Below, in pieces: positions 3,392 through 29,881 of a stretch of DNA of 64,000 bases (the first letter of the stretch is position 1; each line of letters begins with the position of its first letter). The notes beneath the pieces were generated by a model that did not search any database, was not told the origin of the DNA, and was given only the letters and a program-made list of their open reading frames with translations. The DNA comes from a virus, in IMG/VR virus record IMGVR_UViG_3300042554_001073, one strand, 5' to 3'. The position numbers and the translations under genes are program-made.

Positions 3392-4372
3392 TTATGGCAC
3401 CTCATCTAAATATCGGATTATGACAATACCTGGCCCACCTTGCCCATTCGTGTTACCTACGCTGTTAGCACCACCTCCTCCACCAGTATTAGTTACTGCA
3501 TTTTCACCACCATTGCCACCACCACCAGCACCTCCAGTCCCAATAATAGTAGCAAAGTAATCATATCCACCGCCTCCTCCGGCAAACCATCTGCCAGGAC
3601 CGGGTCCAGGTGTTCCATAAGAAGGTGGAATGCCAGTATCTCCAGAGAATGCTGCTAGTCCAACACCACCATCTCCAGCGACTGTTGGAATTGGTGCAGA
3701 GGAACCAGGAGTTCCTGGTCCACCAGCACCGCCCCCACCTCCAGATTGGGATGGATATGTTCCACCTGTTCCACCAGGATTTCCTTGTCCAGGAGTTCCA
3801 TTTCCTCCGGGTTTACTTCCGGCAGGACTTTCTCCACCACCGCCACCAGAACCTCCGGGAAGTCCATTCTGAACTGGGTCATCTGTAAATGTACCGGCGC
3901 CACCACCACCACCACCAGATGATGTTATTGAATGAAAAGTACTTGGTCCTCCAGGATTTCCTGCGCTTCCACTCGAAGCTAAAGGTCCACCTGTGCCAAT
4001 AGTGATGGGATATGATCCCGGAGAAATTGGCATGGATCCTGTTCTGAATCCACCAGCACCACCAGCACCACTACCAGATCTAGACGCACTATGAGAACCA
4101 CCTCCACTACCACCACCAGCTATAACAACATATTCAATCGTGGTGCTAGATTGGGAAACAACAAAAGATGAAGGACCTGGATTGGTAAAAAAATGGTATT
4201 TGTAACCATTTCCAGGAGTAAGAACTTCTGTTCCACCAGTAGCAATAAAAGGCACTGGTGGTTGAATAAATCTATTAGTTCTTACACTACTGTTCAGTGT
4301 TAAATCTCTATCTCTAAAAACACCTAAAAGTTTTCCTACACTAAATCCACCTGTTGACTTAAATGGAGCCAT
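3392..4372 (-). CDS. glycine-rich (polyglycine-II bundle) putative adhesin head
   Basis: ATGGT...PGNGYKYHFFT, VIAGGGSGG, RWFAGGGGG and C-terminal GGPGIVIIRY signature. Confidence 0.8.
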   Translation of the reverse strand: MAPFKSTGGFSVGKLLGVFRDRDLTLNSSVRTNRFIQPPVPFIATGGTEVLTPGNGYKYHFFTNPGPSSFVVSQSSTTIEYVVIAGGGSGGGSHSASRSGSGAGGAGGFRTGSMPISPGSYPITIGTGGPLASSGSAGNPGGPSTFHSITSSGGGGGGAGTFTDDPVQNGLPGGSGGGGGESPAGSKPGGNGTPGQGNPGGTGGTYPSQSGGGGGAGGPGTPGSSAPIPTVAGDGGVGLAAFSGDTGIPPSYGTPGPGPGRWFAGGGGGYDYFATIIGTGGAGGGGNGGENAVTNTGGGGGANSVGNTNGQGGPGIVIIRYLDEVP

Positions 4373-4373
4373 A

Positions 4374-4715
4374 TCAAACCTCCTTGTCGCCAGTAATCAA
4401 GAAATTAACGGTAGAAGTTCCTGCTCCAACACTGATTTGGTCTCCTGTCGTATCAATTACAAGAGGATATGATGGCTCAATTAATACTGTTTCACCTGGA
4501 TTGACATCTACATCAAAAATCTTGGTCGTAATATTAGCAGATCCACCATTTGGAATAAAGTAAACTTGAGCTGTTGATGTGGTAGCGGTTCCTGGCGAGT
4601 GAGCAATTATTGATTTTACATATACTTTTTTAGAACTGGCAACAGTAATAATTCCTACTGTACTTCCAGCAGAAACTACAACTACGTTACTAAGTTTTCC
4701 TCTTTCCAGTGCCAT
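4374..4715 (-). CDS. small beta-rich virion protein (adaptor family, copy 5)
   Basis: MALERGKL...KVYVKSIIAH...ETVLIEPSYPLVI...FLITGDKEV; homologous to 10939, 13144, 22906 and 29244. Confidence 0.8.
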   Translation of the reverse strand: MALERGKLSNVVVVSAGSTVGIITVASSKKVYVKSIIAHSPGTATTSTAQVYFIPNGGSANITTKIFDVDVNPGETVLIEPSYPLVIDTTGDQISVGAGTSTVNFLITGDKEV

Positions 4716-4721
4716 GACTTT

Positions 4722-4739
4722 CTTTTTTAGTTATTTATT
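4722..4739 (-). promoter_or_regulatory. T4-type late promoter plus leader repeat (AATAAATAACTAAAAAAG)
   Basis: 18-mer identical to 5065..5082; 16-mer identical to 23315..23330. Confidence 0.7.
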
Positions 4740-4742
4740 AAA

Positions 4743-5057
4743 TCAACCACCACCATATAACCAAGTATCTAATTGATTCCAACTTTCAACACCTGTTAGT
4801 CCACTACCATCACCACTAAAACTCGTGGCAGTAATAACCCCAACAGCACTAATACCTCCAGCAAGAACTTGAATACCAGATCTTGCTGTAACTAGACCAA
4901 TAGAATCTACATTGGTTACATCTTCATAGGTTAAAGTTCCTGCAATAGAAACGTTTCCAGAAAAAGTTCCAGAAACAGCAGTAATTACTCCAACATTTAG
5001 ATTTGATGGTGGAGATATACTTGTAGAAAATCCCGCTAAATTAGACGCTCTAGACAT
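4743..5057 (-). CDS. short tail-fibre stub
   Basis: GVITATSFSGDGSGLTG fibre motif; C-terminus WNQLDTWLYGGG. Confidence 0.8.
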   Translation of the reverse strand: MSRASNLAGFSTSISPPSNLNVGVITAVSGTFSGNVSIAGTLTYEDVTNVDSIGLVTARSGIQVLAGGISAVGVITATSFSGDGSGLTGVESWNQLDTWLYGGG

Positions 5058-5064
5058 CTTATTA

Positions 5065-5248: not shown

Positions 5249-5260
5249 CAGTATACTTTT

Positions 5261-5815
5261 TCAAGTATTTATTGCCTGATGGTCCGGAAGTTTAGGAAGT
5301 AAGTCAAAAGATATAATCGTTCTCTGCTTTCTTGATTGATTTGGATGAACAAAATGTAATGTATAAGAAGGAACGATGACTAATGTTCCCTCTTTTACAT
5401 TCTGTGGGTATGCTAATGTTGTCGTATCAGTTCTTGGGTCTTGCCAAGGAGCAACAAAACAAGTAGGAGTATGAAGTTTGGGGTCATACTCCACATAAAG
5501 AACACCAGAAAATCCCCAACTTTTATGATTATGAACTGTCTGATGGTCTCCTTGTTTATATCTTACAGACCAACAATCAGTCATACTACAAGAAACTTCT
5601 GCTTCCCGACAAAACTCAAACAGTTGAGGTTTGATAAGGTCTTGAAAGTAATGTAGATATGACTTCTTGTTTGTTTGTCGGTCAGTCTCAAAAGTTTGAA
5701 GTGTAGTCCTTACAAACTTTTGAGAGTTGATGCGATTTAAGATGCCCTTCTTTTTGAACTGCCAATCATCAATCTGATATTGATAAGAAGGGTATTCAAA
5801 AAGTGGAGTTTTCAT
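5261..5815 (-). CDS. 2OG-Fe(II) oxygenase (HxH subtype)
   Basis: HQTVHNH...SGVLYV...EGTLVIVPSYTLHFV...RTIISFD. Confidence 0.8.
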   Translation of the reverse strand: MKTPLFEYPSYQYQIDDWQFKKKGILNRINSQKFVRTTLQTFETDRQTNKKSYLHYFQDLIKPQLFEFCREAEVSCSMTDCWSVRYKQGDHQTVHNHKSWGFSGVLYVEYDPKLHTPTCFVAPWQDPRTDTTTLAYPQNVKEGTLVIVPSYTLHFVHPNQSRKQRTIISFDLLPKLPDHQAINT

Positions 5816-6537: not shown

Positions 6538-7263
6538 TTATGCCTCCTTTTTGATTTTTAATCCTCCCAAAATCCATCCTTCACCTGGACATTCTTTTGA
6601 GAACTTTTGTTGTTCGCCATTATTCCAAAGTTTTCTACCAACTTTTGATTGTCCTATTTTATTACGAACTTCTGTTGGTGTTATTTTACCATAGTTTGGA
6701 TTATTTTTACCAGCGTTTATTTCTCTAAACTTTGCTTTTGATTCTTCACTATGTTTTCTACCAATCCAAGGATGTGGTTGATTTTTCCAAGTTTCTGTTG
6801 TCCTTTGTTTTAGAAGTTCTTTTGTTTCTTGAGAATGTTCTTTTCCGTAGAAAGGATTATTTTCTCCTTGATAGGTTCTTCTTCTATCAACCCAACCTTT
6901 ATTTTCTTTACCTATTTGAGATATTTTATCTCTTGTTTTTTTCGTATGTTGTTTTTGATAAAATGGATTTTCTTCACCAAACTTTTTCTCCTCATAATAA
7001 AATCCAGTTGTCTTTTGTCTTGATTTATTTGCAAAGTGTGGGTTTTGATCCACTTGGTAAAATTTATGAAGATCAACTTCTGCTTGAAGTGCTTCTTCTC
7101 TTGTAGAAAAAGTTTCCAGGATTATTTTATTAGTTGGATTAAAAGTTTCATCAGTATATGACCCAAGATAATTATCATCCTTCGGAAGGCAATCACAGGT
7201 TCTAGAACCTATATAACCCCTCCCAAACTCTTCATAAGAATAATAAACATAATGATTTTCCAT
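6538..7263 (-). mobile_element. free-standing GIY-YIG homing endonuclease with NUMOD3 repeats (Seg-like)
   Basis: HYVY...GRGYIGSR catalytic module; four G-x-x-NP(F/N)YGKxH-like repeats. Confidence 0.85.
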
Positions 7264-7314: not shown

Positions 7315-7935
7315 TCATTTCCATCTTGCGCCGCAGGTCCACCCAACAAGGGATTTACGGGTTCCTTTTGTAACTTTAAGAACTCTATGTTGTGTGCGGG
7401 AATCAAACAGAATCACAGTGCCACGCTTACGGGGAGCAATATAACTATTGCCTGCTTCATCAAGCAGTTGGAGATTGCCACCCTCATAATCATCGGGGTC
7501 AGAGAGTTGAACCACGAACGAAAGTTTACGCACAAGTTCAATGTTCTCATTCAAGAAGTCTTGTGCTAGACCATCTTGACGATTACCAACACTTACAGGT
7601 TTGTATTGAGTTGCTAGTCCTGCGTCATTATGCCATCCGTAAAACTGTCCTTCAGTATATTTTGTAAACTGCATTGATTCGCCATCAATACAGTGAAGGT
7701 CATAAAGGAAGTTCTCACGGTTTGCTCTTTGAATATAATGCCATACAAATCCACCAACCCAATGTGTGGTGGGGATCCAAGCGTTCTGTGAGTTTCTTTT
7801 ATCTTTATTCAGTGCGTCTCCATGCAATCTGGAGTCCGCCATTTGCTCTTCGAACTTTTCTGAAAGGTCTCGTTCTACAAGATCTACTACATCTTCTGGT
7901 AGATCAGAAAAATACCAAATTGATTGAAATGCCAT
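7315..7935 (-). CDS. 2OG-Fe(II) oxygenase, prolyl-4-hydroxylase-like
   Basis: YGWHND...RKLSFVVQLSDPDDYEGG...QHRVLKVTKGTRKSLVGW. Confidence 0.9.
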   Translation of the reverse strand: MAFQSIWYFSDLPEDVVDLVERDLSEKFEEQMADSRLHGDALNKDKRNSQNAWIPTTHWVGGFVWHYIQRANRENFLYDLHCIDGESMQFTKYTEGQFYGWHNDAGLATQYKPVSVGNRQDGLAQDFLNENIELVRKLSFVVQLSDPDDYEGGNLQLLDEAGNSYIAPRKRGTVILFDSRTQHRVLKVTKGTRKSLVGWTCGARWK

Positions 7936-8049: not shown

Positions 8050-8907
8050 TCAAACGCATCTATCAGTTCCAGAAAGTTTATATGCCTTCAATACATTATA
8101 TGTTGGATATTCAGTATCATAAAAATATCCACGATACATCATCGTATCAGAAGCTGATGCTAGAGTAGAAGCAATAAATGTACTTCTAGTTGCCGCAACA
8201 AAATTTGACATTGAAGAATAAGTATAAACTACAAGATCTGCAGTTTTTACATAGAAAAGTTGATTTCTCCAATCATAAACAAAACCACGAATACTAAATG
8301 AATTGACACCATCAGTATATTTTGTGACATATGTTGTTGCGCCGGTTGACATATTAATATTAAATTCATAAATCGTGCTTACCGGCGTATAACATCCTAC
8401 ATATATCTTTTTATTAATAGGATCAAAACATACACCTTGCCAGTTTCCATTCGTGTCTATCGTAACACCATCGGAATGTTGAACTAAATCAGAACCATCT
8501 ATCTTTAAAGAATAAAGATATCCGCCATTTGTAGTAAAATAATATCTATCTCCACCAGTTATTCCTGTAACATATACTCCCCCAGTTGGACTTCCTGTTA
8601 TAGCAGATGTAGAACCAACATTTGTCATTGTGGTTCCGGAAGCAATCCAATTCTCTAAAGTGTTTGAGGTTTTTTTCAATTGAACTGGGTTTCCGGATGC
8701 AACATACATTATTCCTCTTTCATTCAGAAGATTTCCATAGATGTCTTGATAAGGAACAATATCAGAAGATCTTTGATAATCTAATCCGCTGATTGTTCTT
8801 TGCGTAGTAAAATTTGCATAGCAAGATATTGAATATACGATAGGCTGTAGTTGAGTAGCATCAACTCTACCAAACCCAAACTTGCTGCCAGTAAAAATAG
8901 GAGCCAT
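8050..8907 (-). CDS. putative receptor-binding head, beta-propeller-like
   Basis: Repeated aromatic beta blades (WQGVCFDPINKKIYVG; IRGFVYDWRNQLFYV); N-terminus MAPIFTG. Confidence 0.6.
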   Translation of the reverse strand: MAPIFTGSKFGFGRVDATQLQPIVYSISCYANFTTQRTISGLDYQRSSDIVPYQDIYGNLLNERGIMYVASGNPVQLKKTSNTLENWIASGTTMTNVGSTSAITGSPTGGVYVTGITGGDRYYFTTNGGYLYSLKIDGSDLVQHSDGVTIDTNGNWQGVCFDPINKKIYVGCYTPVSTIYEFNINMSTGATTYVTKYTDGVNSFSIRGFVYDWRNQLFYVKTADLVVYTYSSMSNFVAATRSTFIASTLASASDTMMYRGYFYDTEYPTYNVLKAYKLSGTDRCV

Positions 8908-9920: not shown

Positions 9921-10937
9921 TTACCTCACTATTTTAAAAATAACCGCACCACCATTTCCCCTATTTCCAGCAGAAGATGGCTTTATTCCTGGGTTTGCTG
10001 GATCATCTACAGCAATTCCTGATGTTGGTTCTCCAGGTGATGCATCAAAATCTGCGGTATTGCTAAGAACTGGATTGATGTATGAAGAACCTCCACCACC
10101 ATTAGCATAATATCCTCCAGCTCCACCACCACCATAATATCCACCCCCACCAGCGCCGCCGCCATTTGTGCCCGAAGCTCCGCCCCCATATTTTATACCA
10201 GGACTTCCTGCTGGTTCTCTTCCTGCAGACCCACCAGCCCCACCAGCACTTTGAGTACCACCACCACCAAAGATAGCACCATCGGATGGATAATAAGCTC
10301 CACCAGGTTCACCACTAGGATATCCAGCTTGTCCATTTACGGTACCGGTATCTAAGTAATTTGATCCTCCTCCTCCACCACCACCAATTAAAAGATATTG
10401 TGTTGGAGCATTATTTCTTGTTGGAAAGGGAATTGTTCCATCACCAATACGTGATGATCCTCCTCCTGCGCCGCTGAAATAAGTGCTATTACATATACCA
10501 CCATCTGGAAAAGTACTAGTACCGTTTGTTGTAGTACTAGAACCAGCCGCAACTAAAACAGTTAATGAACTTCCAGAATTTACCATATATCTTCCCCTAA
10601 CACCAGCTCCAGCTCCACCACCTCCTGGTCCTGGTGAACCTCCATTTCTTCCACCTCCACCCCAAGCCCACATATCAAAAGTTATAGGATATGATGTTGG
10701 ACTTACCGTTAATACATAATATCCAGCTGTTGAGAATGTTGTAGTATAACCAGTTTGAACATTGGGATATGGAGTTACTACCGGATTTGCTCCAGAGGTA
10801 TCATATGCATTTACTGAATAACTATAAAGGAGTGCTGCTTGTGTTTCTTCAGCGGAGTGGTAATCTATAGATTTACCACTCACATTATATCCACCAAATG
10901 CACCTCTTGTGTTACTTTTAATATTTTTAAATGCCAT
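9921..10937 (-). CDS. glycine-rich head, ALK/LTK-GRD-like subtype (likely start MAFKNIK at 10937)
   Basis: FDMWAWGGGG...GAGGGSS...LIGGGGGGG...GGGGYYGGG...GGGGSSYI. Confidence 0.75.
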   Translation of the reverse strand: MAFKNIKSNTRGAFGGYNVSGKSIDYHSAEETQAALLYSYSVNAYDTSGANPVVTPYPNVQTGYTTTFSTAGYYVLTVSPTSYPITFDMWAWGGGGRNGGSPGPGGGGAGAGVRGRYMVNSGSSLTVLVAAGSSTTTNGTSTFPDGGICNSTYFSGAGGGSSRIGDGTIPFPTRNNAPTQYLLIGGGGGGGSNYLDTGTVNGQAGYPSGEPGGAYYPSDGAIFGGGGTQSAGGAGGSAGREPAGSPGIKYGGGASGTNGGGAGGGGYYGGGGAGGYYANGGGGSSYINPVLSNTADFDASPGEPTSGIAVDDPANPGIKPSSAGNRGNGGAVIFKIVR

Positions 10938-10938
10938 G

Positions 10939-11301
10939 TCATACCTCCTTATCACCCAACACTAAAACATTAATAGAATTAGATATATTACCTTCATTAT
11001 AAACCTGAAGTGTATCTCCATTATTTCTTAATGTAATTGGATATGCAGGTTCAAAGAAGAATGTATCATCAGTTGATATTCCAATTCTTGCTATTCTTGT
11101 CGTTGTATTTGCAGTTCCAGAACTTCCACCACTATTCTGAACTACATGGAGTTGAACGTTCTGAGTTCCTGTTGGACTTAAATTGTAAAGTAATACACTC
11201 TTAATATAAGCAGTTTGAGCAGATCCAACCGTATAAACTGCAGCGGTTACTCCTGCTCCAATCTGCGTAGTAAATCCTAAGTTACCTCTATTAAGTGCCA
11301 T
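10939..11301 (-). CDS. small beta-rich virion protein (adaptor family, copy 4)
   Basis: MALNRGNL...AYIKSVLLYN...DTFFFEPAYPITL...VLVLGDKEV. Confidence 0.8.
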   Translation of the reverse strand: MALNRGNLGFTTQIGAGVTAAVYTVGSAQTAYIKSVLLYNLSPTGTQNVQLHVVQNSGGSSGTANTTTRIARIGISTDDTFFFEPAYPITLRNNGDTLQVYNEGNISNSINVLVLGDKEV

Positions 11302-11323: not shown

Positions 11324-11503
11324 TTAGAAGAGTGAACTGTCGCGCCAATCTGATGATGCTGGAATATTAATCCCAGTCAGACCAGCACCATCACCACTAA
11401 AACTTGTAGCAGTAACAATACCGGTTACGGTAGCACCAAATGGGAAATCAGGCGCTCCAGTATCTTCTTTGTTTACTATCGTATCAACCTGTATTTTTGA
11501 CAT
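11324..11503 (-). CDS. 59 aa tail-fibre stub missed by the ORF track (MSKIQVDTIVNKEDTGAPDFPFGATVTGIVTATSFSGDGAGLTGINIPASSDWRDSSLF)
   Basis: Translated by hand. Carries the fibre motif, has its own late promoter (11524..11529), and its stop TAA is the start of the next TAAATA. Confidence 0.85.
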   Translation of the reverse strand: MSKIQVDTIVNKEDTGAPDFPFGATVTGIVTATSFSGDGAGLTGINIPASSDWRDSSLF

Positions 11504-12154: not shown

Positions 12155-13129
12155 TTATATTGGATATGCGACAACAATAATACCAGAACCACCAGAACCA
12201 CTAGTTCCGCTGCTTTGTCCTCCACCACCGCCGCCACCGCCAGTGTTATTAGTTCCAGCAGTACCTGGAGTACTTTGAGGACTATTTGGAGATCCAGCTC
12301 CACCACCACCTGCTCCACCTACTCCAGCAGACGCTGGATATGCCATTCCACCACCACCCCCACCAAACCATCTACCTGGTGTTGGTCCTGGTGTTCCATA
12401 TGATGGAGGTAAAGTTAATCCTGCGACAACTCCAACACCACCGTCTCTATTACCGGCGGGAGCATTTCCACCTGCGCCACCACCACCGCTAGGAGCTCCA
12501 GGACCACCAGCATAACCTTGCGTAAAAGCATATGGATGACTTTCTCCGGGGAAATCTGACGCAATAATAGGCGCTGGTGTTGATGGATTTAAACCTGGCT
12601 TAAAAGAACCTCCTGCGTTGTCTGCTCCACCGCCACCAGATCCACCAGTTGTTGCTGAACCTCCATTATCTGAAGATCCTCCTCCTCCACCATAAGCTGT
12701 GTATGAAAGAAAAGTAGTATTAGGTGCTCTAACAGAAGCAGAGTTTGGAAATGTTACAGGAACCGCATTGCCGCCGGCACCTACAGTCGCCGTATAAGTT
12801 CCTTGTGAAATTGATACACTCGGAATAAACAAATATCCACCTGCTCCTCCTCCACCACCAAGACGACCTCCACCAGCTCCACCACCACCAACCATCATAA
12901 CAGAAACATTATCTATTGATTGAGATGTTGTAAATTGCCCAGTACTAGTAAAAACATGATATCTCTTTCCATCACCTGGGGTTAAAATAGTTCCACCAGT
13001 TACAATATTTACTGTTGATATATTTAAACTTGTGTCGTACAGAGTTGCTATACCACCAAAAACTGATTTAAATTCATATCCAGTTTTATCGGTAGCAAAT
13101 CCAATATAACCCCTATAATTTCTAGACAT
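12155..13129 (-). CDS. glycine-rich putative adhesin head
   Basis: TGGTILTPGDGKRYHVFTSTG...SYGTPGPTPGRWFGGGGGG...GGSGIIVVAY. Confidence 0.8.
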   Translation of the reverse strand: MSRNYRGYIGFATDKTGYEFKSVFGGIATLYDTSLNISTVNIVTGGTILTPGDGKRYHVFTSTGQFTTSQSIDNVSVMMVGGGGAGGGRLGGGGGAGGYLFIPSVSISQGTYTATVGAGGNAVPVTFPNSASVRAPNTTFLSYTAYGGGGGSSDNGGSATTGGSGGGGADNAGGSFKPGLNPSTPAPIIASDFPGESHPYAFTQGYAGGPGAPSGGGGAGGNAPAGNRDGGVGVVAGLTLPPSYGTPGPTPGRWFGGGGGGMAYPASAGVGGAGGGGAGSPNSPQSTPGTAGTNNTGGGGGGGGQSSGTSGSGGSGIIVVAYPI

Positions 13130-13143: not shown

Positions 13144-13518
13144 CTAACTAATCTCTTCATAAGAGCAAATAATTCCAATCGTATTTGTTGTACTAGCAGT
13201 ACCTGTTAGTGAGCGATTTTCTTCCAAATAAATTGGAGTATCTTTTCCTGTAATAACTACTGTGGTATCTGCTGGAACAGCAATCGTATAAGCAATTGGG
13301 ACAGAAGTTCCTGCTCCTAAAGCCTCATTATGGTACTTAATTGTTATATCACCGCTAGATGTTCCACTAATATTGCTTACCATCAAAGTATTTACTTTTA
13401 AAACCTTACCGCTGGCAGCAGCATTGGAAAGAAATGTTGTTATTGAAGTAGTACTTAGCGAAACTGCGGTTGTTATTCCAGTAACAGTGGTTATTCCAAG
13501 AAGATTGGGATTTGCCAT
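13144..13518 (-). CDS. small beta-rich virion protein (adaptor family, divergent copy 3)
   Basis: KVLKVNTLMVSN...VPADTTVVI...PIYLEENRSL; same fold pattern as the other adaptors. Confidence 0.7.
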   Translation of the reverse strand: MANPNLLGITTVTGITTAVSLSTTSITTFLSNAAASGKVLKVNTLMVSNISGTSSGDITIKYHNEALGAGTSVPIAYTIAVPADTTVVITGKDTPIYLEENRSLTGTASTTNTIGIICSYEEIS

Positions 13519-13536: not shown

Positions 13537-13719
13537 TTATCCGAAAAGTTGATTATAGGTATAAACTTTTGCCGCATCAAAAGCAACAATTCCCGACAAG
13601 TTAGATCCATCACCACTGAAACTTGTTGCTGTTACGATACCTGCTACATTAACACTGTTGTCAACAGCGATAGATTGTCCACCTCTGGATCCAAGTCTAT
13701 CTGTATAAATCTTAGACAT
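13537..13719 (-). CDS. short tail-fibre stub
   Basis: GIVTATSFSGDGSNLSG; C-terminus KVYTYNQLFG. Confidence 0.75.
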   Translation of the reverse strand: MSKIYTDRLGSRGGQSIAVDNSVNVAGIVTATSFSGDGSNLSGIVAFDAAKVYTYNQLFG

Positions 13720-14069
13720 CAGAGACCTCCGATTTGTAGAACATCAATCACCATAGTTTTACCAAGTCCAACAGTTACTCCAACACCAGATGCGATAGTA
13801 ATGTTTGGAACAACAGCAACAACATAAGAATCATAGTTTCCTGCGTTGGTGTTATCAAAAGTGATGCTTGAAGTTACTGTAGCCGCAGCAGCAACATAGT
13901 TAAACAAACCATCAGCATCACCAGTCGGTTGTCCAACTCCACCACCAACTCCAGTTAGTTGTGAACCATCACCAGAAAATGCTGATGCTGTTACGATGCC
14001 AGTAAAACTTGCACCACCAGATACATTTCCTACGATATTACTGACTAATTGTACCTTCGTCTGTGACAT
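13719..14069 (-). CDS. short tail-fibre protein
   Basis: GIVTASAFSGDGSQLTG motif followed by a beta segment. Confidence 0.75.
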   Translation of the reverse strand: MSQTKVQLVSNIVGNVSGGASFTGIVTASAFSGDGSQLTGVGGGVGQPTGDADGLFNYVAAAATVTSSITFDNTNAGNYDSYVVAVVPNITIASGVGVTVGLGKTMVIDVLQIGGL

Positions 14070-20756: not shown

Positions 20757-21146
20757 TTAGTCTGGAGTTATTTTTTTCCATTCCCCCAAACTTTCATCCC
20801 ATAAAGTTGATGTGTTAATTTCTTTTTCTTCATCAGTTAAAATTGGTTCTGGTACAGGTGGAGTCCACTTCAAAGTGTTTTCATCAAATGTCCACGATGG
20901 ATATGGTTTTGTGGAAATAAATCCATCTTTAAACTTATCAAAGGTATTACCTATGTATCCCCAATTTTTTTTATTATCAATCATTACCCAATAATCTTTT
21001 TTTGAATCTGGATATTTTTCATATAAATGGGAGTATGCCCAATGTTCATATACATTACCATCATCATCTGTTACAATATCATCATCAAATATCTGAACAA
21101 CATCTACAACTTTGTTATTAGAATTAACTCTCGCAAAATTAAACAT
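20757..21146 (-). CDS. divergent paralog of 20264..20686
   Basis: MFNFARVNSNNKVVDVV...YIGNTFD...KPYPSWTFDE...WTPPVPEP. Confidence 0.7.
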   Translation of the reverse strand: MFNFARVNSNNKVVDVVQIFDDDIVTDDDGNVYEHWAYSHLYEKYPDSKKDYWVMIDNKKNWGYIGNTFDKFKDGFISTKPYPSWTFDENTLKWTPPVPEPILTDEEKEINTSTLWDESLGEWKKITPD

Positions 21147-21767: not shown

Positions 21768-22892
21768 TCAAGAACCTGTTGGTCCTCCTGATTCTTTGTA
21801 GCGAATGAATACAATTCCTGGACCACCATTTCCGGTATGAACTGCTCCACCTCCACCAGTATTTGGTTGTCCATTTTTTGATGGTTGAGGAGCTCCACCT
21901 CCACCACCTTTTCCTCCCGTGCCAGGAGCACCAGTTCCTCCAGGAAATTGTCCCCCGTGTCCTCCACCACCAAACCAAGCTTCTGTTGGATAATTACTAT
22001 CACCAAATCCATTAGTTGCTCTTGGTCCAATTATAGAACTAAAATCTATTCCATCACCACCTTGTGCTCTAAAAGACGCTGCTGGTCCCGGTACTGTAAT
22101 TCCTGGACCTGTTATTGGTGATTGGTAATATGTTGGAGGACTATACCTTGCTCCACCGCCACCACCGCCTGAATAAGATGTATCGGTTGCAGTTGCGTTT
22201 CCAGGACTTCCTTGGAATCGAGTATCACCAATAGGTGATGTTGGTCCACTTGCTCTTGGTTCTGGAGAATTTCCTGCTGAATTATTTCCTTCACCAAATT
22301 GGGTTATTGGTCCCGGATAATCTTTTCCTCCACCAGACCCACCAGGATTTCCTCCTCCTCCACCACCAGCACCACCATATCCACCACCGTGAACTGTAAT
22401 TGATGGAATGCCATTACCATTTGGGGCATTAAAAACTGAGGGTTGTCCATTTACACCGTTTCCTGGGGATGCATTTGCACCGCCACCAACACTAATTGGA
22501 TAAGTTCCTAGGGGTAAAGAAATTTGTGGTATAAATCTTACTCCACCAGCTCCGCCTCCACCACCACCATATGAACCCGGTTGATCATCTCCACCACTAC
22601 CACCACCAGCAACTAGAATGATATCAAAGTTAGCTGTTCCACCTGGACCATCTAGATTGTTAATTGTAAATGAATATGGTGTCTGAGCATCTAAAGTAGT
22701 TGCTGGAAATGAATGTATTTTATAACCATTCCAATCTGTTATTGTTCCACCACTAGCATTTACTGTAGGTCCCGGAGGATTTGTTGATATACCAGATGTT
22801 CTTTTTGTACTAAAAAAATTTAATCCATAACCATCCAATCTTTTATTTTCCCCAAATCCCTTTGGACTTTTATCAGAACTTCTTGCGCCCAT
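21768..22892 (-). CDS. glycine-rich putative adhesin head
   Basis: ASGGTITDWNGYKIHSF...LVAGGGSGG...WFGGGG...GGPGIVFIRY. Confidence 0.8.
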   Translation of the reverse strand: MGARSSDKSPKGFGENKRLDGYGLNFFSTKRTSGISTNPPGPTVNASGGTITDWNGYKIHSFPATTLDAQTPYSFTINNLDGPGGTANFDIILVAGGGSGGDDQPGSYGGGGGGAGGVRFIPQISLPLGTYPISVGGGANASPGNGVNGQPSVFNAPNGNGIPSITVHGGGYGGAGGGGGGNPGGSGGGKDYPGPITQFGEGNNSAGNSPEPRASGPTSPIGDTRFQGSPGNATATDTSYSGGGGGGARYSPPTYYQSPITGPGITVPGPAASFRAQGGDGIDFSSIIGPRATNGFGDSNYPTEAWFGGGGHGGQFPGGTGAPGTGGKGGGGGAPQPSKNGQPNTGGGGAVHTGNGGPGIVFIRYKESGGPTGS

Positions 22893-22905: not shown

Positions 22906-23307
22906 TTAAATATCAGTATCGCCAAGGATTTGATAGTTCACGACACTACCAATACCTGCTCCCGCTAATCCAGATTGGGTAACTTCTACAACAATCTTTT
23001 CTTGATTTGTTAAAACTAGTGGGTAGTTCATCTCAAAGAAAAAAGTTTCATTTTGTGATAAATCTACTCTAGCAAGACGATAAACAGTTTGACCTACACC
23101 AGAAGCAGCAACACCACTTGGATAAACGTAAAGTGATGAAGTGCAGGTTGCTAGTCCAGTATTATGCATCACCACACCACGTAGATAAGTGGTTGATGCG
23201 ATACCAACTCCTCCAGCAGTTTGTGTAGTTCCTACAGTAAAAATACCAACAGTATTAATACCAGTAACTGCCTGTATTCCTAATAGTTTAGTTCTCTTGA
23301 GGGACAT
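22906..23307 (-). CDS. small beta-rich virion protein (adaptor family, copy 2), close paralog of 29244..29645
   Basis: GGVGIASTTYLRGVVMHNTGL...ETFFFEMNYPLVLTNQ...GDTDI. Confidence 0.85.
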   Translation of the reverse strand: MSLKRTKLLGIQAVTGINTVGIFTVGTTQTAGGVGIASTTYLRGVVMHNTGLATCTSSLYVYPSGVAASGVGQTVYRLARVDLSQNETFFFEMNYPLVLTNQEKIVVEVTQSGLAGAGIGSVVNYQILGDTDI

Positions 23308-23314: not shown

Positions 23315-23330
23315 CTTTTTTAGTTATTTA
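23315..23330 (-). promoter_or_regulatory. late promoter/leader repeat overlapping the stop codon
   Basis: TAAATAACTAAAAAAG. Confidence 0.7.
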
Positions 23331-24290
23331 GTTAAATAAAGCTGCGTCAAGTTCGTTGAAACCTGCAGGAATTGAAACAGAAACTGTAATTGTAGCAGCA
23401 GCTCCTGTAGCAGTTGCTGTAAGGTCAGATCCAACAAAGTTAATGGAAGTGATTCCAGCGCCAACTGAAGAACCTTGTTCTAGAATATTAACACCACTGA
23501 TAACACCAGTTAGATTGGAACCATCACCATAATAAGTAGCACCAGTAACAATACCAAGTGTTGATGTTCCTGATACACTTAATGAACTTATGGATGTGAT
23601 ACCGAGTGTTGATGTTCCTGATACATTTAAGGTATTAATTGTACCAATACCAGTTACATTTAAATTATCGAAATTTCCCGTGGCAACAACTAAAGATGCT
23701 ACTAGATATCCAATTGCTTCAATCTCGTCATTTAAAAGAGCAGCAGAAGTTAGAGTAAAACTAGTTCCATTGGTCGCTGTAAAATCTGTTCCAGCAGTTA
23801 AACGTACACCATTACGATAAACATCAAGATATCCTACAGTATATCCACCAGAAAAAGTAAATACCGATTGTCCAGCAGTAGCAGTATATGTATTGCGAAC
23901 ATAAATGTTTCCATCATTCGCATAACTGATTGGAACTGCCGCACCATAAGAAACACCAGAAAAATCTAGTGCCGCATCTGGTGCTGTAGTGAATACAATA
24001 TTTGAACCAGATACATTATAGTCAACACCAGGACTTTGAACAACACCACCAAGAACAATTCTTAACTGTTGAGCATTTGCTGGAGTAACAGCAACACTAC
24101 CAGAAGTTAATGCGAATGTTTGCGTTGACCCATTGAAACTTCCACTAATATCATCTAATACTTTTATATTACTTACGCTTGCCGCAGCATAACTCTTCCA
24201 TACAGTGCCGTCCCATTCATAGGAAAACCCTGATGTTGTATCAGTAAAAACGCTACCTATACCAGGATTGTTTGGAAAATTAAGTGCCAT
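23328..24290 (-). CDS. tail-fibre protein ending in the stub motif
   Basis: MALNFPNNP..., DDISGSFNG, TATAGQSVFT...DVYRNGVRL, YYGDGSNLTG; C-terminus FNELDAALFN. Confidence 0.8.
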   Translation of the reverse strand: MALNFPNNPGIGSVFTDTTSGFSYEWDGTVWKSYAAASVSNIKVLDDISGSFNGSTQTFALTSGSVAVTPANAQQLRIVLGGVVQSPGVDYNVSGSNIVFTTAPDAALDFSGVSYGAAVPISYANDGNIYVRNTYTATAGQSVFTFSGGYTVGYLDVYRNGVRLTAGTDFTATNGTSFTLTSAALLNDEIEAIGYLVASLVVATGNFDNLNVTGIGTINTLNVSGTSTLGITSISSLSVSGTSTLGIVTGATYYGDGSNLTGVISGVNILEQGSSVGAGITSINFVGSDLTATATGAAATITVSVSIPAGFNELDAALFN

Positions 24291-24339: not shown

Positions 24340-26199
24340 TTATGAAGGATAAGCAATAAGGACGATACCGGAACCACCATTACCCCCCGGTCCAGCACCT
24401 GGGGTGCTTACGATGCCTCCACCTCCACCACCACCAGAACCTGTATTCTGTAATGCATTTGTGCCACTTGCTCCACTGGGTCCAGGGCCACCATTTCCTG
24501 CTCCAGCAAAAGGACCGCCAGGACCACCACCAATACCTCCATTATTTGATGCATTCCAGGCACCACCACCACCACCGCCAGCAAACCAATAACCACTTCC
24601 ACCAGGACCAGGAGCTCCTACTGTCGATGAAGGATTTCTAAATGATGGTGGTGCTTGCAGTCCTATACCACCAAAACCTCCCGCTATCGGAGCTGAAGGT
24701 GAAGGTCCTGGACCACCGACGCCACCAGCACCACCTCCTCCACCTGATGGATATCCAGGAGATCCACTACCACCAGAACCACCAGAGTTTCCATACTCTA
24801 TTGCTCCTGGATTTGTTGCTGGTTGTGCTGCTGGTGCTGCTGTTCCACCATCTCCCGCACCACCAGAAGAACCACCAGTATTAGATCCTGTGCCAGGCCA
24901 ACCTGCTCCACCAGCACCACCACGATAAGCAACATATGGTCCTGACGGATGAGTTACTGTAGTATCAACACCGTCAGTTCCCCTATTTGTTGGACTACTA
25001 CCTCTTGGAGCAACTCCACCAGCACCAACAGTGATTGTATAAGTTGCTGGTGATGGGAATGCTAGTCCAGGATGATAAACAATACCACCAGCACCTCCAC
25101 CACCACCAGATGCATAATTGGTTGGATTGGCATCTGGTCCACCAGAACCCCCACCGGCAACTATGAATACCTCTGCTGTTGGTATTGCTGATGTTGTTTG
25201 GAAAGTACCAGAACTCGTAAAGGTATGAATAGTCATACCATTATAATAACTTATAGCACCACCGGTTGCTTTTGCGGTTGCTGTTAGTTGTCCTATTTGG
25301 TAACGGACTACTACGATTCCGGAACCACCAGCACCACCAATTGCTGCCGGTGGTGAAGCAAATCCACCACCTTGTCCACCGTTTCCAGTGCTATAAGTTC
25401 CAGGAGATCCAGTATTATTTCCAGGGCCTCCACCAGCACCACCTGTAGAGTATGTGACAGAAGAACCACTATAGTTGTTTGAGGTTCCAGTGCCACCGGC
25501 ACCTCCTGTGCCAGCAGTGCCGTTACCTCCTACACCACCTGCTCCACCGCCTCCTCCACCAGCTCCTGGGAAAGCGGTGTGAGCTCTTCCACCATCATAA
25601 CCCTGTCTTGGTGGTCCAGCAGTTCCCGATCCACCTAGTCCAAAAGTAGATGCGTCACTTTGAGCTCCTCCGCCACCACCAGAACCTCCTGGAGATCCAT
25701 TAGTTCCACCACCAGAACCTCCTCCTCCTCCTCCAGTTGCTGATATTGGACCGAAAGAACTTGTTCCACCTTGAAATCCTTGGAAAGGTGAAGAATTTGG
25801 GAATGGCGCTGCCGCACCACCACCACCAACAACAATAGAAAAGGGTGCTGGAAAGGTTCCAGGATTTACTGGAAATCCTGTTGAAGTTAAAAGACCACCC
25901 GCTCCTCCTCCTCCAGCACCTCTACCATTAGATACATCCCCAAGTCCACCACCACCACCACCAGCAACTACAAGATACTCAACATTAGATCCAAAAGATC
26001 CAATAGAACTTACATCAAAAGTACCTGATGAAGTAAAGATGTGTGCTCTATAGACATCAGACCCATCTACATAATCACTGATAACCCCACCAGTTGCTGT
26101 AAGACCCTCTAATGGCGGTGGAGTAGAAGCATCCGTACCACTTCTTACGAAGGTGTCTAAAAACTGTTGTAGTGAATTATTGACTGATCTTACGCCCAT
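24340..26199 (-). CDS. two-domain glycine-rich putative adhesin head
   Basis: Two tandem ATGG...HxFTSSG...GGSGIV(V/L) units. Confidence 0.8.
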   Translation of the reverse strand: MGVRSVNNSLQQFLDTFVRSGTDASTPPPLEGLTATGGVISDYVDGSDVYRAHIFTSSGTFDVSSIGSFGSNVEYLVVAGGGGGGLGDVSNGRGAGGGGAGGLLTSTGFPVNPGTFPAPFSIVVGGGGAAAPFPNSSPFQGFQGGTSSFGPISATGGGGGGSGGGTNGSPGGSGGGGGAQSDASTFGLGGSGTAGPPRQGYDGGRAHTAFPGAGGGGGGAGGVGGNGTAGTGGAGGTGTSNNYSGSSVTYSTGGAGGGPGNNTGSPGTYSTGNGGQGGGFASPPAAIGGAGGSGIVVVRYQIGQLTATAKATGGAISYYNGMTIHTFTSSGTFQTTSAIPTAEVFIVAGGGSGGPDANPTNYASGGGGGAGGIVYHPGLAFPSPATYTITVGAGGVAPRGSSPTNRGTDGVDTTVTHPSGPYVAYRGGAGGAGWPGTGSNTGGSSGGAGDGGTAAPAAQPATNPGAIEYGNSGGSGGSGSPGYPSGGGGGAGGVGGPGPSPSAPIAGGFGGIGLQAPPSFRNPSSTVGAPGPGGSGYWFAGGGGGGAWNASNNGGIGGGPGGPFAGAGNGGPGPSGASGTNALQNTGSGGGGGGGIVSTPGAGPGGNGGSGIVLIAYPS

Positions 26200-26217: not shown

Positions 26218-28200
26218 TTATGAAGGATAAGCGATGAGAACGATTCCGGAACCACCGTTGCCACCAGAATATGGGCTATTGTATCCGCCACCACCACCAG
26301 ATCCTGTATTTTCAAGAGCAGATGCTGCATTACCATTTCCAGCTCCTCCATGTGGACCCCCAGGAGCGCCATTTCCACCACCTTTTGATGGAGATCCAAC
26401 ATTACCACCAGCTCCTCCACCGGCAAACCAGTATAAACCAGAAGCATCCCCATTAGTATATGCCGTAGTTGGACCCGGAGCACCAACTGTTGAATTTATA
26501 TTTCTAAATGTTGCTGGAAGCTGCATTGCTTTTCCACCATTTGCAGCATTTGGAGCACTTTGAGGTGGAGCATTTTCACCCACTCCACCTGCTCCACCAC
26601 CGCCAGCGCCATAACCACCACCTCCAGAATGACCCCAATATCCAGCACCAGATGGTTCTGATGGTCCAATAGTTCCTGGAAACGGAGATCCTTGGGCGGG
26701 ACCGGGACTAGCCGACCCAGCATATCCGCCCCCGCCACCTGATCCTCCGGGAGAACCAGTACCGCCGCCAGGTGTTTGTCCATTTCCTCCACCTCCACCA
26801 CCAGGAGCAGTTAATGGTGCTCCAAAATAAGACTGTGTGCCAGTTCCACCAGAACCACCAGGAATACCTCCACCACCAAAAAGTCCTGCTATTCCTCCTA
26901 TACCACCAGCACCAATTTGAATGCTTGTTGATACTGGATGTGATCCTATTGTAGTAGTGCCTGTTCTGTAGGCACCAGCACCTCCACCTCCACCACCATT
27001 TGCTGCCGGTCCAGTGTTACCTCCACCACCTCCACCACCAATTACAACATACTCTACATTAGTTGAAGTCCAATTTGGTGCTGTTACAAAAGTACCAGAA
27101 CTCGTAAAGGTGTGAATTGTCTTGCCGCTATAGTAACTAATAGCACCACCAGTTGCTTTTGCGGTTGCTATTAATTGTCCTATTTGATATCTTACTACTA
27201 CGATTCCGGAACCACCGTTGCCGCCACTAAAAGGTGATACTGCAGATCCAGGTGATGTGGCACCACCTCCTCCACCACCTGTAGAATAAGTACCGGCATT
27301 TCCACCAACAGTTGCTGATCCATCACCTCCACCACCAGCACCACCAGGTCCAGCAGTAAATAATTGCCCCGCGTTTCCTGCTCCGCCACCCCCTCCAGCA
27401 AAGTATCCGCCACCAGGATTTGGACCAGGTGTTCCTATTGGTTGGGTTGATGTTGAAGGTCCAGCAATAAGAACTTGAGAACCTATTCCTCCAGCACCTG
27501 CATTTCCACTAGTAACATCAGAACCTGCTCCGCCAGCGCCACCTCCACCGCCACCTGCTCTGATAAGTGGTGCTGGAGTTATACCTCCAGGATTTCCTTG
27601 TGGTGGAGATGTTGGTGGAGAGTTTCCTGTACCTGCAGTTGTAGTATGTCCACCACCACCGCCAGAACCACCAGGAGCACCTGGAACAGGAACACCTGGA
27701 GCACTAAAAGAAGGTGGATTATAGAATTGTCCTCCATATCCACCACCATTAGATGTTATAGACCCAAATACTGAATTTGAACCACTTGTATTATTCCCAC
27801 CACCTCCACCAACAGTTACTGTATAAGAACCTGGTGAAGTTGATACTGGAAATGATGAACCTGCTAATGGATGTCCGATAAGATTAGTTCTTAAACCTCC
27901 AGCACCACCGCCACCTTGTCCAGTATCACCAGACGCTAGACCTCCACCTCCACCACCACCAGCAACTACAAGATACTCAACAGTATCACCATATTTACCA
28001 GGGGCAGTTACATTAAAAGTTCCTGATGATGTAAAAATGTGTGCTCTATAAACATCGGAACCATCTATATAATCACTTATAACACCACCAGTTGCTGTAA
28101 GACCTTCTGGAGGTGGTACTTCATTGGACGCATCAGTACCTGTCCTTGAGAGGTAATCTATAAAACCAGCGATTGGATTTCCGAGTGCTCTTAATGCCAT
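26218..28200 (-). CDS. two-domain glycine-rich putative adhesin head, paralog of 24340..26199
   Basis: Same architecture, with several 23-33 nt identical DNA blocks. Confidence 0.8.
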   Translation of the reverse strand: MALRALGNPIAGFIDYLSRTGTDASNEVPPPEGLTATGGVISDYIDGSDVYRAHIFTSSGTFNVTAPGKYGDTVEYLVVAGGGGGGGLASGDTGQGGGGAGGLRTNLIGHPLAGSSFPVSTSPGSYTVTVGGGGGNNTSGSNSVFGSITSNGGGYGGQFYNPPSFSAPGVPVPGAPGGSGGGGGHTTTAGTGNSPPTSPPQGNPGGITPAPLIRAGGGGGGAGGAGSDVTSGNAGAGGIGSQVLIAGPSTSTQPIGTPGPNPGGGYFAGGGGGAGNAGQLFTAGPGGAGGGGDGSATVGGNAGTYSTGGGGGGATSPGSAVSPFSGGNGGSGIVVVRYQIGQLIATAKATGGAISYYSGKTIHTFTSSGTFVTAPNWTSTNVEYVVIGGGGGGGNTGPAANGGGGGGAGAYRTGTTTIGSHPVSTSIQIGAGGIGGIAGLFGGGGIPGGSGGTGTQSYFGAPLTAPGGGGGGNGQTPGGGTGSPGGSGGGGGYAGSASPGPAQGSPFPGTIGPSEPSGAGYWGHSGGGGYGAGGGGAGGVGENAPPQSAPNAANGGKAMQLPATFRNINSTVGAPGPTTAYTNGDASGLYWFAGGGAGGNVGSPSKGGGNGAPGGPHGGAGNGNAASALENTGSGGGGGYNSPYSGGNGGSGIVLIAYPS

Positions 28201-28218
28201 TTTATAGTTTTTGAATAT

Positions 28219-29241
28219 TTATGCTAGTGTTCTGTAACGAATGATAATAATTCCAGATCCACCTGCGCCACCGGCAGTGTTGACTGGTCCTCCACCGGCG
28301 CCACCACCACCACCACCAGTATTGGCAGTTCCCGGATCACCTACAGTATCAGTGCTTTTTCCAGCACCACCACCACCAGCTCCACCAGAACCAGCAGTAT
28401 TACTTGTTGGATGTGTTCCCCCTCCACCACCACCTGCTAAATATCTCCCAGGCTGTGGTCCCGTGGTTCCATAAGAATTTGGTATTGAATATTCTGCAGT
28501 AAAACGACTTCCACTACCTCCAGGTCCACCAGATCCTGGTTGTCCAGAAGCAGTAGCTCCACCTCCACCACCTCCACCAGATGATCCAGATGATCCTCCT
28601 GGATAACCTTGCGTATAAGGTGGTCCTGAAGGAGGGTATCCAGAACCAGGAGCACTTGGAGCATTAGCATCAGCACCAGCGCCACCACCAGATCCACCGG
28701 CAGCAGCATTTTGTCCCTCATTAGCTCCACCCCCGCCGCCACCAAAAGCAGTATATCCAAAAGCAGTTGTATCAGATCCATTTGGACCAGTTCCTGGACT
28801 ACCTGTTGGTGCCGGTCCTCCTGCACCAACAGTAAATGAATAGTTCTGAACTGTTACAGTATGTGTTCCTGGAGTATTTGGACGAAGTGGATGATTTAAG
28901 AAGTTTGTAAGGAGACCACCGGCACCACCTCCACCTCCGCCTCGGCGGGTATCTCCATTTTGGGAATAACCACCGGCACCACCACCCGCTATAAGAATAT
29001 ATTCAACTTCACCTGGACCATTTACATTTGTTACATTAAATGGTTGTGGATTAGATGTTGGTGTAAAATAATGATATGTGTAAATTTTTCCATCTGGAGA
29101 TGAAACATTTTCTTCTTTTACTCCACCCGTTGCTGTAATTCCCGATATTGATGCAATAACGGGCTTAGAAGCCCTATTCCCAGTTCTATTGAACCGATCC
29201 CTAAAACTTGCTGCGGAATTACCAAGTGCTCTTACGACCAT
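28219..29241 (-). CDS. glycine-rich putative adhesin head
   Basis: ITATGG...YHYFT...SYGTTGPQPGRYLAGGGGG...GGSGIIIIRY. Confidence 0.8.
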   Translation of the reverse strand: MVVRALGNSAASFRDRFNRTGNRASKPVIASISGITATGGVKEENVSSPDGKIYTYHYFTPTSNPQPFNVTNVNGPGEVEYILIAGGGAGGYSQNGDTRRGGGGGGAGGLLTNFLNHPLRPNTPGTHTVTVQNYSFTVGAGGPAPTGSPGTGPNGSDTTAFGYTAFGGGGGGANEGQNAAAGGSGGGAGADANAPSAPGSGYPPSGPPYTQGYPGGSSGSSGGGGGGGATASGQPGSGGPGGSGSRFTAEYSIPNSYGTTGPQPGRYLAGGGGGGTHPTSNTAGSGGAGGGGAGKSTDTVGDPGTANTGGGGGGAGGGPVNTAGGAGGSGIIIIRYRTLA

Positions 29242-29243
29242 AA

Positions 29244-29645
29244 TTAGATATCAGTGTCGCCATTGACTAGGAAATTAACAGCAGATCCAATACCAGCACC
29301 ACCAGTATCAGGAGCATTAACTTCTACAACTAACTTGTCCTGATTTGTCATTGTAATCGGATAATTGGTTTCAAAGAATGTAGTTTCACTTGGTGCCAAA
29401 TCAACTCTTAAAACTCTATATGCTGTTTGAGCTACACCTGTTACTGAAACACTGCTTGGGTAAAGATATAAAGAAGTTCTTGCGGTTCCAAGTCCAGTAT
29501 TGTGCATTACAATACTTCTAATGTAAGTAGTAGAAGCAATTCCAACACCACCTGCGGTTGGAGTTACTCCAACAGTTAAAATTCCTACTGTAGCAATTCC
29601 TGTTACTGAGGTTACATTAAGAAGTTCTGTCTTTCTAAGTGCCAT
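29244..29645 (-). CDS. small beta-rich virion protein (adaptor family, copy 1)
   Basis: GGVGIASTTYIRSIVMHNTGL...ETTFFETNYPITMTNQ...GDTDI. Confidence 0.85.
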   Translation of the reverse strand: MALRKTELLNVTSVTGIATVGILTVGVTPTAGGVGIASTTYIRSIVMHNTGLGTARTSLYLYPSSVSVTGVAQTAYRVLRVDLAPSETTFFETNYPITMTNQDKLVVEVNAPDTGGAGIGSAVNFLVNGDTDI

Positions 29646-29665
29646 TTTCCCGTCCTTTTTTATAT

Positions 29666-29881
29666 TTAGAAGAAGAGACCTGAAGTGATGTCATTAGCAC
29701 CACCAGAACCTGCTGCGGCAACGCCAGTAAGATTAGAACCATCTCCATAATATGTAACAATGCCAGTAGTTGCAGTTACAATACCTGAAGAAATTCTAAC
29801 AGTACCTATAGTACTGACCCCAGTAACATTAAGTTGTCTACTGTCATCAATAACAGTAGTTCCTGAAATCTTAATTGCCAT
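29666..29881 (-). CDS. short tail-fibre stub
   Basis: MAIKISGTTVIDDSR; GIVTYYGDGSNLTG; C-terminus NDITSGLFF. Confidence 0.8.
   Translation of the reverse strand: MAIKISGTTVIDDSRQLNVTGVSTIGTVRISSGIVTATTGIVTYYGDGSNLTGVAAAGSGGANDITSGLFF

Follow-up and report, generated by a model that had tools for sequence, protein, structure and literature searches.

The fibre gene region described here lies in the IMG/VR virus record IMGVR_UViG_3300042554_001073, a 64-kb stretch of DNA (64,000 nucleotides [nt], referred to as the window) to which all set and head counts for this phage apply. The region contains five sets of genes, each comprising a short tail fibre shaft (the "stub" of an earlier, sequence-only reading of the same DNA), a small protein that we call the adaptor, and one to three heads. 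We consider it rather probable that the adaptor is a structural joint in a modular tail fibre. The conserved unit of each set appears to be a junction block made up of the C-terminal tail of the shaft, the adaptor and the N-terminal leader of the head, with the variable parts lying outside it. We infer the trimeric state, the direct contacts, the stoichiometry and the presence of these proteins in the virion.

In the proposed arrangement, each set would give rise to one modular tail fibre assembled from separate proteins. The product of the first gene would be a short and probably trimeric shaft, the last ~12 residues of which form a hydrophobic tail ending in phenylalanine or tyrosine (F/Y). 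The adaptor, a compact predicted jelly roll, would take this tail on one side and, on its other side, the ~25-residue N-terminal leader of the head, which would be unstructured when alone. The third protein would be the receptor-binding head, mostly of a TNF-like plus glycine-rich type resembling gp24 of phage Pam3 and in some cases lectin-like. The genome would contain at least five types of joint, each having a tail and a leader of its own; their distinctness would prevent mis-assembly of the fibres, and recombination may exchange heads or shafts at points beyond the conserved junction block. Heads with a common leader, such as the three in set 1, would be alternative or joint occupants of a single adaptor.

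The five-fold recurrence of the order shaft, adaptor, head, first described in the sequence-only reading, is borne out: all five sets are present on the minus strand (Table 1), which carries every gene between 3.4 and 35 kb of the window. As calculated from the coordinates, shaft and adaptor genes are separated by 18-27 nt and adaptor and head genes by 1-14 nt. Seven heads are found behind the five adaptors, three of them in set 1, and these adaptors are the only five matches of their kind within the window. A megablast search against isolate phages using 9 kb of the region as the query returned zero matches. In a protein search, gp32 of the Synechococcus phage Bellamy, which is a T4-type cyanophage (family Kyanoviridae), matched adaptor 1 at 69% identity, and it is because of this match that we take the window to be that of a Bellamy-like, T4-type cyanomyophage.

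Table 1. Shafts, adaptors and heads of the five sets, with one additional fibre piece (aa, amino acids; Gly, glycine; AF2, AlphaFold2; pLDDT, predicted local distance difference test)
Feature	Position	Strand	Characteristics
Shaft 1	29666..29881	-	71 aa; ends ...DITSGLFF; GDGxxL at residue 46; relatives end (D/N)ITSxLF(F/I)
Adaptor 1	29244..29645	-	133 aa; phrog_20100 E 3.4e-49; AF2 model pLDDT 83, 8 strands
Head 1a	28219..29241	-	340 aa, 29% Gly; PF21722 E 9.5e-26; leader in common with 1b and 1c
Head 1b	26218..28200	-	660 aa, 32% Gly, two glycine-rich domains; PF21722 E 4.1e-28, two stretches
Head 1c	24340..26199	-	619 aa, 32% Gly, two glycine-rich domains; PF21722 E 5.2e-31
Shaft 2	23328..24290	-	320 aa; ends ...NELDAALFN; PHROG tail fibre and virion structural matches; full motif at residue 246
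Adaptor 2	22906..23307	-	133 aa; phrog_20100 E 1.6e-44; 63% identical to adaptor 1
Head 2	21768..22892	-	374 aa, 28% Gly; PF21722 E 4.2e-12
Extra fibre piece, upstream of shaft 3	13719..14069	-	116 aa; GDG motif; ends ...VIDVLQIGGL
Shaft 3	13537..13719	-	60 aa; ends ...YTYNQLFG; same tail in loci L021 and L040
Adaptor 3	13144..13518	-	124 aa; MA(A/N)PN... start; no PHROG family below E 0.07
Head 3	12155..13129	-	324 aa, 28% Gly; PF21722 E 1.2e-21
Shaft 4	11324..11503	-	59 aa; ends ...DWRDSSLF; same tail in locus L040
Adaptor 4	10939..11301	-	120 aa; phrog_20100 E 2.5e-23
Head 4	9921..10937	-	338 aa from ATG, 25% Gly; PF12810 ALK_LTK_GRD E 1.7e-8
Shaft 5	4743..5057	-	104 aa; ends ...DTWLYGGG; PHROG tail fibre matches E 3e-16
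Adaptor 5	4374..4715	-	113 aa; phrog_20100 E 9e-29; alignment A4
Head 5	3392..4372	-	326 aa, 30% Gly; PF21722 E 9.3e-21; AF2 pLDDT 77

The neighbourhoods of adaptor homologues found elsewhere show the same arrangement: the shaft-adaptor-head order is kept in 82 distinct sets, drawn from the window, IMG/VR contigs and isolates. An adaptor profile search of 1.84 billion representatives returned 308 clusters at E ≤0.001, nearly all of them free-standing proteins of 110-135 aa, and three IMG/VR scans yielded 17, 19 and more than 200 loci. The order recurs four times in Bellamy (gp31-33, gp36-38, gp39-41 and gp42-44) and is also present in cyanophage S-SKS1, Pelagibacter (SAR11) phage HTVC033P (gp66 [tail fibre], gp65 and gp64), gammaproteobacterial phage DSL-LC04 and S-CBWM1 (gp85, gp86 and gp87). 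A more distant small protein, ORF27 of S-SCSM1 (19.9 bits against the adaptor profile; Foldseek E 1.3e-4), is flanked by two fibre genes, one for a long tail fibre and one for a tail fibre (ORF26/27/28). The layout in P-SSM2 is identical (PSSM2_293/294/295), and small proteins of the S-SCSM1/P-SSM2 type are present in 88 isolate records. S-SCSM1 ORF27 is labelled "virion protein" in GenBank, which is a lead and no proof; a mass spectrometry study of this phage reports 45 proteins in the virion, 13 of which have no known function, and cites a virion proteome for S-CBWM1 (PMC9602691). We found no description of this three-part grammar in the literature searched, an absence that does not prove that none exists.

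This distribution makes it very improbable that the recurring order is only synteny left by tandem duplication of an ancestral three-gene block, with products that make no specific contact. The sets are paralogous and all lie in one hypervariable fibre region, where linkage alone can yield block-wise co-variation. However, the order is kept in unrelated phages (Kyanoviridae, S-SKS1 and S-CBWM1 from other genera, the SAR11 phage and the gammaproteobacterial phage), it persists with unrelated shafts (collagen-like or long fibres) and with unrelated heads, and the junction peptides and the adaptor are the only parts kept.

The suggestion that the three parts form one modular unit is supported by the conserved order and by co-variation of the junction sequences over the 82 sets. 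Adaptor identity is correlated with that of the last 15 aa of the shaft (rho 0.57) and of the first 25 aa of the head (rho 0.58; Mantel p 0.001 for both), and is uncorrelated with the remaining shaft (0.17) or the remaining head (0.07). When the adaptor is held constant, the correlation between tail and leader is 0.08; that between adaptor and leader stays at 0.47, and that between adaptor and tail at 0.46. Four matching classes illustrate the pattern, each given as shaft tail, adaptor start and head leader: DTWLYGGG, MALERG and MAP(F/I)KS; (D/N)ITSxLF(F/I), MAL(R/K/Q)KT and M.(V/I)(R/K)(A/S)LGN; ELDAALF(N/S), MALKRT and MG.RS(S/T); and (K)(A/S)IAMA(I/M)(V/I)FG, MA(A/N)PNI and either M..RY.GG(I/V) or MANGGIIG.

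The ~25-aa N-terminal leaders are kept within each adaptor type while the remainder of the head diverges. With adaptor and leader type the same, head length varies between 296 and 903 aa and glycine content between 10 and 34%, and heads behind one leader vary from glycine-rich to lectin-like. Over the 82 sets, glycine content is at least 22% in 64 and lower in 18 (about a fifth). Conservation is higher in the adaptors than in their flanks: at adaptor identities of ≥90%, the remaining head is 49% identical. In 16 of 71 sets, the leader recurs on a second head, sometimes with a distal domain of a different kind. By sequence comparison, then, head domains have been exchanged behind a constant leader, in agreement with the earlier proposal that the heads are swappable. 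A helper dedicated to folding particular heads is disfavoured because the adaptor does not vary with the head domain.

The feature common to the shafts is the hydrophobic C-terminal tail, not the GDG motif. A hydrophobic-F/Y tail closes all five window shafts, compared to 17% of other open reading frames (ORFs) of at least 100 aa; similarly, 77 of the 82 shafts end in [LIVMAW][FY] followed by 0-3 residues, compared to 186 of 1120 background ORFs. The sequence-only reading had placed a longer fibre motif in every first gene. Its core, GDGxxL(T/S)G, is indeed present in all five shafts, but the full-length motif is found in only four, shaft 1 having the shorter form GIVTYYGDGSNLTG, and the GDG motif also occurs in fibre genes of the window outside the five sets. 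Because only 30 of the 82 shafts carry GDG, it is not a defining feature of the grammar; the S-CBWM1 shaft is instead collagen-like, with 86 aa, GXY repeats and a terminal LFFF, which points to a trimeric shaft. Shafts match tail fibre PHROGs and, weakly, a Chlorovirus glycoprotein repeat in Pfam with the same GDG motif; no match to a T4gp10-like branching domain was obtained in a Pfam scan of all shafts. Shaft 4 falls under the 60-aa limit of the ORF list, yet is present in the sequence.

At their other end, many shafts have in common the plug-like start MS(Q/K/R)(L/I)xVDxIxN(R/K)xG (8920-9696, 11324-11503, 13537-13719 and L020-L035), which suggests a common docking site at the virion-proximal end. 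The motif is no longer present in shaft 5 of the window (alignment A3). The ...VIDVLQI(G/S)xL tail of the extra fibre piece is also found on Bellamy gp35 (L001, 22871-23575), directly upstream of the Bellamy shaft gp36. With a piece of this kind directly upstream of the shaft gene in each of the two phages, the fibres may be chains built from four or more proteins, in which a further tail-to-plug joint would do without an adaptor.

The second genes had been described as homologous beta proteins of 113-133 aa. The sizes hold, four of the five belong together and the fold predicted for adaptor 1 is a beta fold, but adaptor 3 is barely related to the others. Adaptors 1, 2, 4 and 5 span positions 1-123 of the 123 in phrog_20100, a family of unknown function (E 2.5e-23 to 3.4e-49), to which adaptor 3 has no match. 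When adaptor 3 was compared with the other types by hhalign, using profiles built without circularity, an E value of 8.5e-4 and a probability of 24% were obtained over 88 colinear columns. Adaptor 3 would thus be a second adaptor type, at best a distant relative of the other four, and the adaptors appear to comprise at least two barely related families. Adaptor 3 has 204 relatives in IMG/VR and counterparts at the equivalent position in S-SKS1, HTVC033P and DSL-LC04. Adaptors have no match in Pfam, NCBIfam or PDB sequences, and these searches likewise gave no membership in Tfa or other fibre-chaperone families; matches in the ESM Atlas and BFVD are solely unnamed viral proteins of equal size.

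Adaptor 1 is predicted to fold as an eight-stranded jelly roll (beta-sandwich). Its nearest neighbours among solved structures are oligomeric viral jelly rolls such as the KHP40 trimeric cement protein (Z 9.5), as well as small plant virus coats, Ena fibre subunits and C1q-/TNF-like domains, and the model also resembles the carbohydrate-binding modules CBM51 and CBM32 (Z ~7). The latter resemblance is consistent with a reading in which shaft and adaptor are a complete small fibre whose jelly-roll knob, a lectin, binds the receptor, with the glycine-rich proteins attaching elsewhere or acting alone and being no more than neighbours at the gene level. Many viral fibres end in jelly-roll knobs, and the DSL-LC04 homologue is annotated as a "putative lectin". 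We nevertheless regard this reading as improbable: a receptor-binding role is disfavoured because conservation within a set is highest in the adaptor, the opposite of what receptor binders typically show. In addition, the head leader co-varies with the adaptor, the two genes are only 1-14 nt apart, and the heads share their fold with a fibre proven to bind receptors.

The third genes of the window are glycine-rich, as the sequence-only reading had stated: the seven heads contain 25-32% glycine and match PF21722 (six heads) or PF12810 (head 4). Scores against PF21722 (Gly_rich_2; cut-off 24.3 bits) are 47-109 bits for heads 1a, 1b, 1c, 2, 3 and 5 and for the product of 14094-15023, and head 4 scores 35.2 bits against PF12810 (cut-off 24.5). 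PHROG places the heads in families of unknown function, and a search of their sequences against the PDB gave nothing useful. In a fold search with the AF2 model of head 5, the top match is the Pam3 fibre (7ypx_A; E 3.7e-6) with modest template modelling (TM) scores of 0.44/0.56, followed by the tail-tip glycine-rich chains of mycobacteriophage Bxb1 and the LTK/ALK glycine-rich domain. In Pam3, the end of the tail fibre that binds the receptor has this TNF-like plus glycine-rich architecture (PMC9608196; PDB 7YPX, 7YFW). On the Pfam matches and the head 5 model, the heads belong to this known receptor-binding fold of the Pam3 gp24 type.

The comparison of the heads with T-even gp38 adhesins that had been drawn from the sequence was not upheld: there is no gp38 match in Pfam (E up to 0.1), and it is the Pam3 fibre that tops the fold search. 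The S16 gp38 structure (6F45) is not on the Foldseek list for head 5, although absence from such a list does not argue against its three-layer polyglycine-II sandwich fold. In the model of head 5, residues 4-35 are unstructured (pLDDT <50), with no helix and no sign of a Pam3-type N-terminal helical bundle, which fits what would be expected of a docking peptide. In set 1, the leader of head 1b scores above 99% of the null when compared with that of head 1a. Heads 1b and 1c also have a 175-nt stretch in common near the 1c start (83% identity), the only long pair in a direct-repeat scan whose output otherwise consists mostly of glycine-codon repeats.

The main rival to a structural joint is a transient assembly helper: the adaptor would capture the three hydrophobic shaft tails or the head leaders, set their register to allow folding of the trimer from the C-terminal end and leave, and the head would then dock directly on the shaft tail. 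Collagen-like trimers are nucleated by domains such as the jelly rolls of the C1q/TNF family, and C1q-like nucleators of this sort would fit S-CBWM1 gp85-gp86. Co-variation of adaptor and shaft tail fits this reading, as does the 3:3 complex that Pam3 gp25 makes with its glycine-rich fibre (PMC9608196). We consider such a helper unlikely. Co-variation of the adaptor with the head leader is just as strong, and the co-variation of tail and leader is gone when the adaptor is held constant, which is unexpected if the tail touches the leader. Furthermore, adaptors match no Pfam chaperone family, some shafts are merely 59-71 aa and leave little for a dedicated helper to fold, a remote relative in the equivalent position (S-SCSM1 ORF27) bears the "virion protein" label, and a different small family, phrog_7759, is found downstream of the heads in the position expected of a head chaperone.

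Several points nonetheless weigh against the adaptor being a structural joint. The order of a fibre gene followed by a small gene matches that of fibre-chaperone pairs (P2/Mu Tfa; Pam3 gp24-gp25). The DNA for shaft tail, adaptor and head leader is one continuous stretch of ~450 bp, and linkage alone could give both the co-variation and the pattern of partial correlations; linkage with breakpoints tolerated only outside the block still implies selection for the integrity of the block, but not contact. The jelly-roll matches are generic, with a best Z of 9.5, and values of 7-8 are typical even without a clear Foldseek match. The link between S-SCSM1 ORF27 and the adaptors is remote. Two paralogous fibres missed by the sequence-only reading (15029-16036 and 8920-9696; 47% identical, phrog_36132) are each followed directly, with no adaptor between, by a head starting with MAPxFTG (14094-15023 and 8050-8907, respectively). 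One of these, the product of 14094-15023, is an eighth glycine-rich head (PF21722) that had also been missed; the other is not glycine-rich. The C-terminal domains of the two fibres were considered as fused adaptors and rejected at the sequence level (hhalign probability <1%).

Natural fusions of adaptors are also nearly absent, so that "Rosetta stone" support for the joint is missing. A search of longer proteins gave one adaptor-head read-through, which turns into out-of-frame sequence, and that of the representatives turned up two chimeric ORFs and a small number of proteins with two adaptors in tandem; as out-of-frame read-through and likely chimeras, the fusion ORFs are not usable as evidence of fusion. 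Three metagenomic proteins (P0040, P0051 and P0151) consist of half an adaptor with a shaft end, a head start with an adaptor end, or a whole adaptor with a head, and are either junction-block recombinants or artefacts of assembly or sequencing. Complex prediction using alignments for three copies of shaft 5 with one of head 5 and one of adaptor 5, run without controls, gave ipSAE interface scores of 0.01 and 0.00 and is uninformative either way.

Taken beyond this phage, the proposal of a structural joint becomes more tentative. It is possible, though we would stop short of calling it probable, that a superfamily of free-standing jelly rolls of ~115-135 aa serves as a plug-and-socket joint in several unrelated aquatic phage lineages, with mutually exclusive types (at least five here) and two to three alternative heads per joint. 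A single cyanophage could in that case display at least nine receptor binders, re-sorted by recombination at the borders of the joints.

A number of other genes are found in the fibre region. Four 2-oxoglutarate-Fe(II) (2OG-Fe(II)) oxygenase genes are interleaved with the sets (21171-21746, 11541-12146, 7315-7935 and 5261-5815), and three of their products match PF13640 (prolyl-hydroxylase-type). Relatives of these oxygenases lie within ~5-6 kb of the adaptor (the flanks fetched) at 24 of 109 loci, and oxygenases adjoin sets in Bellamy, HTVC033P and DSL-LC04 as well; they may modify glycine/proline-rich heads or collagen-like shafts. Two small paralogues of phrog_7759 (unknown function; start MAHFAQLD...) are encoded at 20264-20686 and 20757-21146. 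Relatives of this family occur at 26 of 109 adaptor loci, 93% of them downstream and typically just after the head (Bellamy gp34, HTVC033P gp63), and the phrog_7759 protein has no PDB or Pfam match.

The 525-aa fibre encoded at 17697-19274, which starts with Mtd_N, and its two small neighbours (19541-19864 and 19311-19541) all end in ...DGGSF, which may be the shared end motif of another joint type. Peptidase_S74, a self-cleaving chaperone domain, ends two fibre proteins (16042-16482 and 29909-31678), one of them merely 146 aa in length. Directly upstream of set 1, 31714-35367 encodes a protein of 1217 aa with Laminin_G_3 (lectin-like) in two stretches and a glycine-rich stretch near the C-terminal part. 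A NUMOD3-motif protein resembling homing endonucleases is encoded mid fibre region between two of the oxygenase genes (6538-7263). ATAAATA, the T4-type late promoter core, is found 25 times in the whole window compared to 21 expected, which is not above chance; 23 of the 25 sites are on the coding strand (3000-32000, minus), and several lie just upstream of shafts 2, 4 and 5 and of 13719-14069.

Through their host range, marine cyanophages and SAR11 phages shape carbon cycling in the ocean, and most of their many fibre genes are annotated as "hypothetical". The adaptor families are without a Pfam or NCBIfam model despite the 308 clusters and the related type in 88 isolate records. If the proposed joint is correct, the code of tail, adaptor and leader would tell which shaft pairs with which head, and fibre sets could be read from genomes and metagenomes. 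It would also explain how hypervariable fibre regions recombine without assembly failure, and it would provide a natural plug-and-socket scheme for the study of host recognition in laboratory strains.

The sets resemble several known systems in part. As with P2/Mu Tfa, a small protein is encoded right after a fibre gene and matches the C-terminal end of that fibre, and Mu Tfa stays on the fibre; here, however, a further head gene with a co-varying leader follows the adaptor, and the matched end of the shaft is a 12-residue tail rather than a receptor-binding domain. Pam3 gp24/gp25 is similar in its TNF-like plus glycine-rich receptor-binding head and in the small, separately encoded partner beside the fibre gene. 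In contrast to the sets described here, which have a short unstructured leader, a separate shaft and jelly-roll protein, and the small gene upstream of the head, Pam3 gp24 is a single protein whose own N-terminal helical bundle docks to the baseplate, and its partner gp25 is encoded downstream and released.

In the T-even long tail fibre, gp34, gp35, gp36 and gp37 are joined end to end, with the small connector gp35 between trimeric segments. In T2, T6 and S16, gp38 is a separately encoded glycine-rich adhesin on the hydrophobic fibre tip that docks on gp37 with no third protein. (The S16 gp38 tip is described in PMC9608196.) The likeness consists of a serial fibre of separate proteins, a small connector and a separate glycine-rich adhesin at the tip; the differences are that the heads have no gp38 family match and the adaptors no Pfam/NCBIfam match, and that here one genome has five sets in parallel, in which as many as three heads belong to an adaptor. 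T4 gp35 is like the adaptor in position only, as there is no family match and gp35 is absent from the fold lists.

Branched systems of receptor-binding proteins (RBPs) are known from the podophages KP32, K11 and KP34 of Klebsiella and from the Ackermannviridae (PMC6872550, PMC13352976, PMC11414711). There too, an anchor carries binders that dock by a short conserved N-terminal peptide, distal domains are swapped by recombination, and one virion has several specificities. The socket in those systems is the T4gp10-like domain of the first RBP, whereas here it is predicted to be a free-standing jelly-roll protein of ~120 aa; the shaft side here also has its own C-terminal tail code, and the heads are glycine-rich binders rather than depolymerase spikes. 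The arrangement proposed here differs from the known schemes in its free-standing jelly-roll socket, its two-sided code, its at least five parallel types per genome and its spread over unrelated aquatic lineages.

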